Shown here: positions 56,037 to 57,778 of the stretch, in pieces
How the letters are laid out: each line of letters starts with the position of its first letter
How positions within the stretch are numbered: position 1 is the stretch's first letter
Assembly: GCA_014161675.1 (NCBI GenBank)
Contig: GCA_014161675.1_4760.1
Strand: one strand, 5' to 3'
Source of the DNA: a phage
DNA length: 64,000 bases
The notes under the pieces: model-generated
What the model was told of the DNA's origin: nothing
Database searches by the model: none
Seen by the model: the letters and a program-made list of their open reading frames with translations, nothing else
Translations under genes and position numbers: made by a program

Positions 56037-57778
56037 GCGTGATTGAAGGGATTAACGCAATGGCGACGGATGAACACCCGCTACATTTAGCGCATCCGTC
56101 TACACTAGAAACTAAAATTGATTCAAACGGCATTGAATGGATTTTATCAAAGCATGATGATAAATGGTATCCTAAAAAGTTTTCTGACTATCTGAAATTA
56201 AACAGACCGCAGAAAATAAGGATGCAAAGCACTGATCCAACAAATTATAAGTTCTTTAAAGATAGTGACAATATTCGCACGCGGTATATGCGATTAAAGA
56301 ACTTGCGAAGGGCGAATATTAAAACTCAGTATACCCCTGAAATGATCGCAGAGTGGAAACGATGCCGTAAAGATATTGTGTATTTTGCCGAAACCTATTG
56401 CGCAATTACACACATCGACTACGGTACAATCAAAGTACAATTGCGTGATTATCAGAAAGATATGCTTAAGATCATGCATGAAAACCGCATGAGCGCACAT
56501 AAACTCAGCCGTCAGCTAGGGAAAACTACCGCTGTAGCAATATTCCTTGCTCACTACGTTTGTTTTAATAAAGACAAAGCGGTAGGTATACTGGCACACA
56601 AAGGGTCAATGGCGGTTGAAGTTCTAGAACGTACTAAACAAGCAATTGAACTATTACCAGACTTCTTACAGCCAGGTATTGTTGAATGGAACAAGAAATC
56701 AATTGTTCTTGAAAACGGTTCAAGTATTGGTGCTTATGCGTCGTCTCCTGATGCTGTGCGTGGTAACTCTTTTTCGTTTATCTACATAGACGAATGCGTT
56801 AGTGGCTTGACCAAAGTTACATTACGTGATAAGCTAACAGGTGAGATTAAAGAATACACCATGTTAGAGGTTAAGATGATGGCTATTCAGCAAAAGTTAA
56901 GTAAAATTAAAGAGTTATTGCTACCACACGCTAAAAATCCAAACTTGACTCGCGGATTAATTTCTGGCATAACGAAAGAAATGATGGATGAGTTTAAAGA
57001 GTTTTTCGACACTCATTTTCACAAAACAGATACAATGAGAGAATTTGTAGCATGTGTAGTAAATGATATTCTGGAACGCCCAACGTGTAAGCATTGCGGA
57101 GGCCGAGTAAAATATAGTAAAGTTCGACCGAGATATAATAATGTATGTTCTCAGTCATGTAACGCTAAATTACCAAAGCGTAGAGGACTCTTTAACAATA
57201 ATTGGGTATTCTTCCGGCGATACTTATGCACCGGATGTAATGAGTTTACAGCAAAATGTAAAGGTCATTTATGCAGAAAATGCGGGCATGAACAACAAGG
57301 CGAGGCGATGAAACGCATATACGTCGAAAACGGTGATGAAATGCGCAAAAAGTGTAACGGCAAGAAAACACCAGAACAAAGGGCTAAACAGTCCGAACAA
57401 GTTAAACAGCGTATTCTGAATGGTGAATTTACTCCTAAGACGACCAACCGTCTTAATCACACCCGCATTAAGTATGATGGTCATAGCTTTCGTAGCTCAT
57501 GGGAATTAGCTTTCTATAAAGATATGAAAGCTAAAGGAGTTAATATTGAATATGAAACGCTTCGTGTTGCATACAAATTTAAAGGAAATAATCACGTTTA
57601 TATTACGGACTTCGTAGATCACGATAATAAGATCATTTATGAAGTTAAGCCTAAGCGACTTGTTGAAGATCCAAAAACAATGGCGAAAGAACAAGCCGCT
57701 ATAGAATGGTGTAAGGAAAACGGATACACTTTCGAATATATTCACGAGGATTATATTAATGAACTTTTGGAATCTTGA
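56033..57778 (+). CDS. 17: terminase large subunit N-terminal fragment (aa 1-254) fused to IntN and a zinc-ribbon/PD-(D/E)xK nuclease module
   Basis: residues 1-254 collinear with T4 gp17 up to Walker B FIYIDE; then [12 protein letters not shown]... Hint block A; ORF continues to stop at 57776-57778. Confidence 0.85.

Follow-up and report, generated by a model that had tools for sequence, protein, structure and literature searches.

A putative homing endonuclease in frame with the short half of an atypical split intein in the terminase gene of a Krischvirus phage

We analysed a 64,000-nucleotide (nt) stretch of phage DNA (NCBI GenBank assembly GCA_014161675.1, contig GCA_014161675.1_4760.1), called the window below, in which terL, the gene for the large terminase subunit gp17, is interrupted by a split intein together with a putative nuclease. 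A megablast search with positions 55500-59200 assigned the source phage to Krischvirus, the RB49-like group of T4-type coliphages. The search returned 64 phage records, 6 of which span the whole query at 95-98% identity and 58 of which are without about 1.3 kb of it. The genes follow one another as gp15, gp16 (55539-56036), open reading frame (ORF) 1 (56033-57778; 581 amino acids, aa), ORF2 (57759-59138; 459 aa) and gp18 (59173 onward). RB49 has one 607-aa gp17 at the corresponding position, and the gene is also uninterrupted in Phi1 and FL37. Alignment with the intein-less gp17 alleles, a comparison that an earlier reading of the sequence (the initial annotation) had proposed, delimits an insert of 1282 bp (56795-58076) that precisely separates codon 254 of gp17, for the Walker B glutamate (..FIYIDE254), from codon 255, for Cys255. 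In protein alignments, residues 1-254 of ORF1 correspond to residues 1-254 of RB49 gp17 and residues 107-459 of ORF2 to residues 255-607, and the two exteins, when rejoined, give a protein identical to RB49 gp17. The C-extein matches the C-terminal half of Pfam Terminase_6N and Terminase_6C. In GenBank, ORF1 is labelled 'hypothetical protein', 'terminase large subunit' or 'DNA packaging enzyme'. The features of the locus are listed in Table 1.

Table 1. Features of the interrupted terL locus, in window positions. RBS, ribosome-binding site; IntN and IntC, N- and C-terminal intein halves; pN/pS, ratio of non-synonymous to synonymous differences per site.
Feature	Position	Strand	Evidence
TerL (gp17) N-extein, residues 1-254, ends ..FIYIDE	56033..56794	+	RB49 identity; Pfam Terminase_6N 6e-26
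Short IntN of atypical split intein, 27 aa, block A only; Cys1 TGC 56795-56797	56795..56875	+	Insert start relative to intein-less alleles
GAGG-N5-ATGATG, possible internal RBS and start (M282/M283) of a free 300-aa nuclease	56867..56881	+	Read directly
Predicted N-terminal helical region, ORF1 residues 282-351	56876..57085	+	AlphaFold2 helices; conserved in full-length relatives
Predicted zinc ribbon 1, CKHC (residues 352-355) ... CSQSC (residues 372-376)	57086..57160	+	Four Cys in 10/10 full-length homologues
Predicted zinc ribbon 2, CTGC (residues 399-402) ... CRKC (residues 414-417)	57227..57283	+	Four Cys in every homologue
Predicted helical linker, module residues 137-197, with conserved 13-residue motif	57284..57466	+	AlphaFold2; near-invariant columns; pN/pS ~0.07
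Predicted PD-(D/E)xK nuclease domain, T7 endonuclease I/TnsA type; ORF1 stop 57776-57778	57467..57778	+	Profiles, alignment, model
ORF2 RBS and start, GAGG-N9-ATG, inside 3' end of nuclease coding sequence	57746..57761	+	Read directly
Long IntC, 106 aa, blocks B, F, G, ends ..VESHN	57759..58076	+	Match to 6DSL_B
TerL C-extein, Cys+1 at 58077, CAFIQNW..., residues 255-607 of mature protein	58077..59138	+	RB49 identity; Pfam

The part of ORF1 that follows IntN, residues 282-581 (nt 56876-57775), is referred to as the module. It carries two pairs of cysteine motifs, the coding sequences of which start at 57086 (CKHC), 57146 (CSQSC), 57227 (CTGC) and 57272 (CRKC). Ten full-length homologues that share only 30-45% identity have Cys at all eight positions, which argues that the pattern is not due to chance. 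The cysteines of the second ribbon are also kept in a truncated, 199-aa form of the protein, and a weak match to a Pfam double zinc ribbon was obtained. An AlphaFold2 model built on an alignment of 63 homologues has a mean predicted local distance difference test score (pLDDT) of 81, exceeding 93 in the nuclease domain and being low in the second zinc ribbon. It places helices at module residues 2-18, 34-47 and 54-62 in the N-terminal region (pLDDT 77-90), and at residues 139-161 and 166-181 in the linker.

Two Pfam profiles for PD-(D/E)xK nucleases matched module residues 201-291, namely PF08722 (TnsA-like N; 34.9 bits against a gathering threshold of 26.5, covering profile positions 6-85 of 85) and PF05367 (Phage_endo_I; 31.4 bits against a threshold of 29.1, covering only positions 11-77 of 149). 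Among the PHROGs, the best description came from phrog_15427, 'endonuclease', at 7e-48. A phmmer search of PDB sequences aligned the segments FRSSWE, ITDF and YEVKP to T7 endonuclease I, with E491 (nt 57503), D526 (57608), E537 (57641) and K539 (57647) standing opposite E20, D55, E65 and K67, which we take to be the catalytic residues of that enzyme. All four are invariant in the alignment of 63 homologues. Foldseek ranked TnsA, I-Bth0305I and Vsr as the top matches of the model, which predicts that the restriction-endonuclease core fold is present in the module. The search for homologues gave 112 matches with a word index and 1559 with an exhaustive method, most of them about 300 aa long, and many of these carry NUMOD3 motifs. 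NUMOD3 is a DNA-binding motif typical of free-standing homing endonucleases of phages. A scan of the module and IntC against NCBIfam gave no match.

Much of this had been anticipated. The initial annotation described a module at residues 282-581 without a stop codon, with SWELAFY (beginning at residue 489) and a second motif at residues 524-541 (ITDF..YEVKPK), and all of these are found where it placed them. Its suggestion of a PD-(D/E)xK-like signature is borne out by the two profiles above their thresholds, the T7 endonuclease I alignment and the invariant tetrad, so that both fold and catalytic residues are in place. The four CxxC pairs that it listed need one correction: CKHC, CTGC and CRKC have this spacing, but CSQSC is CxxxC. 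Its proposed profile search of residues 282-581 against Vsr, PD-(D/E)xK and zinc-ribbon families yielded PD-(D/E)xK families and a weak double zinc ribbon, and no Vsr.

We also considered whether the nuclease belongs to the Vsr-like EDxHD family, and rejected this assignment, since the nuclease domain has no conserved His and the canonical ExK is invariant. In relatives, the position of the His in the 'DHD' sequence of the window is taken by K, E, P, Y, R or C. The Pfam scan, read up to an E value of 1, contained no Vsr family, and searches of PDB sequences with the single sequence and with the profile did not match 3R3P, 1CW0 or 1VSR. The likeness to Vsr reported by Foldseek is a fold similarity at the level of the superfamily only. 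By its sequence, the nuclease belongs with the canonical E...D...ExK enzymes of the T7 endonuclease I/TnsA type. In the proposed bipartite enzyme, catalysis would fall to the PD-(D/E)xK domain and DNA recognition to the helical region and the two Cys4 zinc ribbons.

The same catalytic core occurs a second time in the window. A 157-aa protein encoded on the minus strand at 35093-35566 gives a strong TnsA-like N match (PF08722, 75.8 bits) and shares the pattern RSSWE...DF...EVKP with the nuclease domain (25% identity, E 3e-6). Since the nuclease module also matches PHROG 218, 'head closure', this protein is probably a head completion protein of the T4 gp4 type. The common core suggests that the homing nuclease and a core phage protein share a catalytic fold.

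The intein itself was identified from its C-terminal half. IntC matches PDB 6DSL_B, the CatC chain of a consensus engineered atypical TerL intein, over residues 5-105 of 106 (phmmer, E 6.1e-12). Cat is a consensus of the atypical TerL split inteins AceL-TerL and GOS-TerL (review PMC11766414). Because of this match, the intein is on sequence grounds a member of the known atypical TerL split-intein family. Atypical TerL split inteins have an IntN of 25-37 aa and an IntC of about 104 aa (PMC11766414), and the window shows this layout, with a split after block A, an IntN of 27 aa up to M282 and an IntC of 106 aa. In the relatives that we label L007, L016, L032 and L033, IntN ends in a stop codon at or near the same point (24-33 aa). 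A 40-aa query containing IntN matched no intein chain among the PDB sequences, the peptide being too short for phmmer. The residues needed for splicing are all present: the intein Cys1 is residue 255 of ORF1 (nt 56795), block B of IntC reads SESH, and the terminal ..VESHN is followed by Cys+1; H47, H105, N106 and C107 of ORF2 are invariant in four lineages. Protein trans-splicing would be expected, because terL is essential and the intein-bearing phages are cultured isolates.

ORF1 and ORF2 overlap by 20 nt (57759-57778), with ORF2 in the +1 frame, and equivalent junctions are found in phiR1-RT, Thanatos-2, L030 and L031. The ORF2 start region, GAGGATTATATTAATG, differs by one inserted A from the 15-mer GAGGATTATATTATG, which occurs at least 7 times as an RBS/start cassette on the minus strand of the window (e.g. 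7169, 8402, 9026, 12535, 14105, 27766). A scan of the insert for sigma-70-type promoters gave hits at chance level and no terminators were found; the T4-type late promoter TATAAATA was not found inside the insert, and the nearest copy is at 59134, before gp18. The base composition of the insert is not clearly foreign (GC content 0.34-0.40, against 0.38-0.42 in the flanks).

In the frame of ORF1, no stop codon occurs between the start of the intein at 56795 (Cys255) and the ORF1 stop at 57776. Because nothing stops ribosomes that translate ORF1, a fusion protein is unavoidable. The GAGG-N5-ATGATG to which the initial annotation drew attention as a possible site of independent initiation is present as read, with GAGG at 56867-56870, 5 nt, and then ATGATG at 56876-81. 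In the window, GAGG-N4-8-ATG was observed 54 times against 26.5 expected, suggesting that about half of these motifs are real start sites. The GAGG at the junction stands where L007 has GAGG-N6-ATG, the Shine-Dalgarno (SD) sequence and ATG of a free-standing nuclease ORF, and M282 aligns with the start Met of the separate nuclease ORFs in L007, L033 and L032 (P0120). This agreement in position, together with the excess of the motif, makes independent initiation at 56876 plausible in Krischvirus. An RNA hairpin over the internal SD and ATG is weak (z = -2.25; 7 of 200 shuffled sequences fold as well). A match to GAGGACTTCTTATG at 33965 turned out to be an ordinary gene start and not a second nuclease junction.

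We then compared the junction in relatives that carry the element at the same terL site, and three types were seen: fused, separate in the +1 frame, and separate in the same frame. The fusion recurs in 7 other Krischvirus records, in Shewanella phage Thanatos-2 (41% identity in the module), and in two metagenomic T4-like lineages, L031 (P0119 cluster, 38% identity, on a 95-kb T4-like contig) and L030 (P0118). Of the Krischvirus alleles, five were read base by base, two more were detected by tblastn, and the P0114 cluster adds another. In the metagenomic L007 (P0001) and L033 (P0115), the full module is a separate ORF in the +1 frame that overlaps the IntN ORF by 14 nt. A separate +1-frame nuclease of 199 aa, with the same 14-nt overlap, is found in phiR1-RT and about 20 other T4-like phages; it is without the helical region and the first zinc ribbon, and only the second ribbon is left. 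The shortened three-ORF element of phiR1-RT (L004, 1582-3061) looks like a deletion derivative, because its IntN ORF continues into ..ALAIAQKEFKNAKE and a stop codon, a 14-residue tail homologous to the start of the module in the window. RefSeq annotates an 'endonuclease' between two 'terminase large subunit' genes in phiR1-RT, with no intein mentioned. The third type is seen in L032, where the junction reads ..EYFLTM-TAA-EFDR-MLKKDV, against ..EYFLTM-GAA-EFEL-MLKKDV in the fused L030. Thus one G/T change (GAA for Glu, TAA for stop; L032 1-60 and L030 2570-2600), 4 codons before the nuclease Met, toggles between the separate and the fused state. The initial annotation had left it at a fusion, a separate protein or both, which fits these data, since relatives exist in both states and the ATG aligns with the free-standing starts.

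Several observations point to a mobile element under selection. In comparisons of the window with four other alleles, pN/pS is 0.07-0.45 in every segment of the module, and IntN and IntC have almost no non-synonymous changes, suggesting that the module is under purifying selection. The flanks differ from those of the intein-less FL37 at only two synonymous positions in 2.4 kb, -7 and -4 (window 56788-56794; ATT>ATA and GAT>GAC, respectively). A near-identical insert sits on three terL backbones, RB49-like (kaaroe), FL37-like and the divergent JK32. In JK32 the first ~390 nt downstream of the insert are donor-like (7 mismatches) and the next 670 nt contain about 80 mismatches, a co-conversion-like pattern. 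As in the homing class of elements, the insert lies at a conserved site of an essential gene, its presence or absence is precise (6 with, 58 without), and there are signs of horizontal spread and co-conversion of the flanks. GAC at -4 was found in all five intein-bearing alleles read, and GAT in at least 34 of the intein-less records listed.

The insert is also a mosaic. Its DNA identity to other Krischvirus inserts is 93-100% except at 56915-57335, the end of the helical region and both zinc ribbons, where it is only 50-83% to six other inserts and synonymous sites have reached saturation (pS ~0.8 for the zinc ribbons). P0114 combines a first ribbon like that of the window with a remainder like that of kaaroe. 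The divergent patch and the P0114 mosaic suggest that the presumed DNA-recognition part has been exchanged by recombination between lineages at the same site.

The arrangement resembles several known systems without coinciding with any of them. In the fractured genes described by Dassa et al. in 2009 (PMC2677866), a stop codon ends IntN, 27-51 nt of non-coding DNA follow, and then comes a free-standing endonuclease gene, GIY-YIG or Vsr-like, whose 3' end overlaps the start of the IntC ORF by 6-69 bp. The mention of Vsr-like endonucleases in fractured genes by the initial annotation agrees with this description. The window shares the overlap of the nuclease 3' end with the IntC ORF (20 nt), but it has no stop after IntN, its nuclease is in frame with IntN, and the nuclease is T7 endonuclease I/TnsA-like with two zinc ribbons. 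In the model of these authors (PMC2677866), it looks like half of step IIIa, in which the flanks of the endonuclease gene are lost and the gene comes in frame. AceL-TerL, GOS-TerL and Cat (PDB 6DSL) share the host gene and the equally unusual split site. They come from metagenomes and serve as engineering tools, and the C-terminus of their IntN is free, whereas the IntN of the window, found in cultured coliphages, is preceded by a 254-aa extein and followed by a folded cargo of 300 aa.

The nuclease has the catalytic core and the E...D...ExK residues of T7 endonuclease I (PDB 1M0D) and of the N-terminal domain of TnsA (PDB 1T0F). The former is a junction-resolving enzyme and the latter a transposase subunit, and neither has an N-terminal zinc-ribbon region. 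The bipartite layout, with N-terminal DNA binding and a C-terminal nuclease of the restriction-enzyme fold, is shared with the I-Bth0305I/Vsr-like EDxHD family, members of which occur in phage introns and fractured genes (PMC3239194). That family, unlike the nuclease of the window, uses a histidine as general base in a composite E-D-x-H-D site. Classical bifunctional inteins (e.g. LAGLIDADG) also have a nuclease in frame with the splicing sequence, and in both cases the nuclease would stay attached to a part of the splicing domain. In the window, however, the frame is continuous on the N-terminal side only, the intein is split after the nuclease, the nuclease lies between blocks A and B instead of B and F, and its family is different. 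A contiguous bifunctional intein is not what the window encodes, given the stop at 57776-57778 and ORF2 in another frame. Gosselin, Arsenault and Gogarten (bioRxiv 10.1101/2025.01.02.630785) described actinophage inteins with out-of-frame or antisense endonucleases. These, like the present locus, can be read as an intein invaded by a free-standing endonuclease gene, and the indel route of these authors could bring such a gene in frame; the actinophage inteins are contiguous with the nuclease in another frame or strand, whereas the intein of the window is split and its nuclease is in frame with IntN. On these comparisons, the locus would stand between a fractured gene and an intein bearing an in-frame nuclease.

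Taken together, the identified domain with its catalytic residues, the recurrent fusion, the presence/absence polymorphism, the purifying selection and the spread over backbones make it probable, though by no means assured, that the module is the functional homing endonuclease of the 1282-bp split-intein element, made as an IntN fusion and possibly also alone. For cleavage, target site, splicing and the active protein species we infer the following course. TerL(1-254)-IntN-nuclease (581 aa) would be translated from the late gp16-gp17 message, and IntC-TerL(C) from its own GAGG-N9-ATG in the last codons of the nuclease. The intein halves would associate and trans-splice to give intact TerL, identical to RB49 gp17, and a 327-aa IntN-nuclease would be released, probably still bound to IntC, and the two together would be equivalent to a bifunctional intein in two pieces. 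Initiation at the internal GAGG-N5-ATG may in addition yield a free nuclease of 300 aa. In a mixed infection, the nuclease would cut intein-less terL near the junction of GATGAA and TGC, and repair from intein-bearing genomes would copy the element into the cut gene.

Some of our observations weigh against this proposal. The insert is without a promoter of its own. Since neither T7 endonuclease I nor TnsA is a sequence-specific homing enzyme, specificity would have to come from the zinc-ribbon region, parts of which have a pLDDT below 50 in the AlphaFold2 model. Moreover, this region is only 50-60% identical in DNA to that of other Krischvirus alleles at the same insertion site, which would be odd if the region alone set specificity. 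A free nuclease is not universal, since the junction in Thanatos-2 lacks an ATG. Finally, six intein-less phages (Skers, Brandy, pEJ01, UPWr_E1, SSG23 and SFHK24) have GAC at -4. The association of this base with the intein is strong but not exclusive, and the change GAT>GAC cannot be upheld as a clean marker of homing or immunity; the intein-less phages with GAC could carry resistant alleles or have lost the intein.

An unlikely but still substantial alternative is that only the free 300-aa protein initiated at 56867-56878 is active, and that the fusion arose as a neutral accident, by loss of the IntN stop or by a frame change, its product being inert or degraded. The ATG at 56876 is positionally homologous to real starts in L007, L033 and L032, in this genome about every second GAGG-N4-8-ATG is a genuine start, a single G/T change divides the fused L030 from the separate L032, and separate-ORF forms are at least as common among close relatives as fused ones. 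On the other hand, the fusion has been retained in at least four lineages that are only 38-45% identical, Thanatos-2 is without an SD as well as an ATG at the junction, and L030 and L031 have only poorly spaced SD-like sequences. Ribosomes reading through on ORF1 would tend to occlude the internal start, part of which lies under the hairpin, and the fusion protein is made in any case. It is improbable that the nuclease has been domesticated to cut competitor or host DNA late in infection or to assist packaging, with no role in homing. Production in step with a late packaging protein and the presence of the same core in the conserved 157-aa TnsA-like protein (35093-35566) would suit such a role, and Barth et al. 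2023 (PMC10448857) discuss possible dual roles of nucleases near terminase genes. Yet 58 of the 64 Krischvirus-type records do without the nuclease, which is invariably linked to the split intein at a single precise site and is distributed over backbones like a selfish element.

Even less credible is a decaying, inactive remnant, kept only as a source of the stop codon, RBS and start codon for ORF2. Homing endonucleases commonly decay once an element is fixed, and the 199-aa version without the first zinc ribbon in phiR1-RT-like phages could be seen in this light; but the catalytic tetrad and all eight cysteines are intact and invariant across lineages, pN/pS is well below 1 in every segment, and the element is far from fixed in Krischvirus. 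Programmed frameshifting, by which the 20-nt overlap would serve to join ORF1 and ORF2 into one contiguous intein with an internal nuclease, has next to no plausibility and was rejected. The offset of ORF2 differs between lineages (+1 in the window and L030, +2 in Thanatos-2 and L031), the overlap holds no recognisable slippery site, ORF2 has its own GAGG-N9-ATG, and IntC halves of this family work as separate proteins in the literature (PMC11766414). The homing endonuclease made as an IntN fusion is therefore the reading that we prefer.

In L030 (ENA k141_67156, 220-4244), two atypical split inteins divide a T4-like terL into three pieces. The first consists of TerL up to the Walker A GK and a short IntN (CLHENTVIYIK..), followed in frame by a module of some 380 aa that contains Cys clusters and matches the T5orf172 domain (PF10544) with 20.7 bits, the threshold being 20. 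The second (P0118) consists of a long IntC, the middle extein, an IntN and the in-frame PD-(D/E)xK module. The first piece suggests that the in-frame IntN-nuclease fusion recurs with an unrelated family at another site. With both PD-(D/E)xK and T5orf172, both the Walker B and the Walker A sites of terL, and several T4-like lineages involved, we tentatively raise the possibility, which we rate below even chances, that the fusion is a recurrent, selectively maintained architecture of atypical split inteins and not an accident. If so, the fusion may mark a stage on the way from an intein invaded by a free-standing endonuclease gene to a classical bifunctional intein, or it may be a working arrangement that couples release of the nuclease to splicing of TerL and in which the reassembled splicing domain helps to hold the nuclease on DNA. 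For assembly of atypical inteins, a review paraphrases the proposal that the N-extein threads through IntC (PMC11766414). With bulky domains at both ends of IntN, IntC would have to fold around it, and threading would not apply.

Neither the split intein family nor fractured genes nor PD-(D/E)xK homing enzymes are new. In the literature searched, which did not extend to the original papers on the AceL-TerL and GOS-TerL loci, we found no description of an in-frame IntN-nuclease fusion; nor did that literature contain a nuclease of the T7 endonuclease I/TnsA-like family in an intein context or an intein in any coliphage, and a 2024 paper states that coliphages were without a reported intein (PMC11162368). 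The acquisition of nucleases by inteins and the breaking of genes have been proposed to proceed through split inteins that have an endonuclease gene between their halves, by intermediate steps that have so far been inferred and not observed. The window offers an observable intermediate, with the nuclease in frame on one side, relatives in the other state and one pair that differs by one base. The host is tractable, because RB49-type coliphages grow on E. coli K-12 and the near-isogenic intein-less FL37 exists; simple crosses and mutants can thus address homing, trans-splicing and what the fusion does. It is mainly as an experimentally tractable intermediate that the locus should interest the intein and homing endonuclease field. 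Atypical TerL inteins are also used as labelling tools, and a natural IntN that tolerates 300 aa of C-terminal cargo is informative for their engineering.

Two other elements of this kind were noted in terL genes. P0114 (803 aa; Krischvirus-like, on contigs of up to 175 kb) has, besides the IntN-nuclease fusion, another intein, which is contiguous, about 222 aa long and located within the Walker A motif, with junctions at SRQLGK/ALDVN...PTHN/TTAVAIF and Ala as its first residue. In L018 (1453-7552), a related atypical TerL split intein flanks a different intervening ORF of 618 aa, which matches DUF7487 and, weakly, REase_MTES_1575, and the ORF bearing IntC is 1191 aa long.

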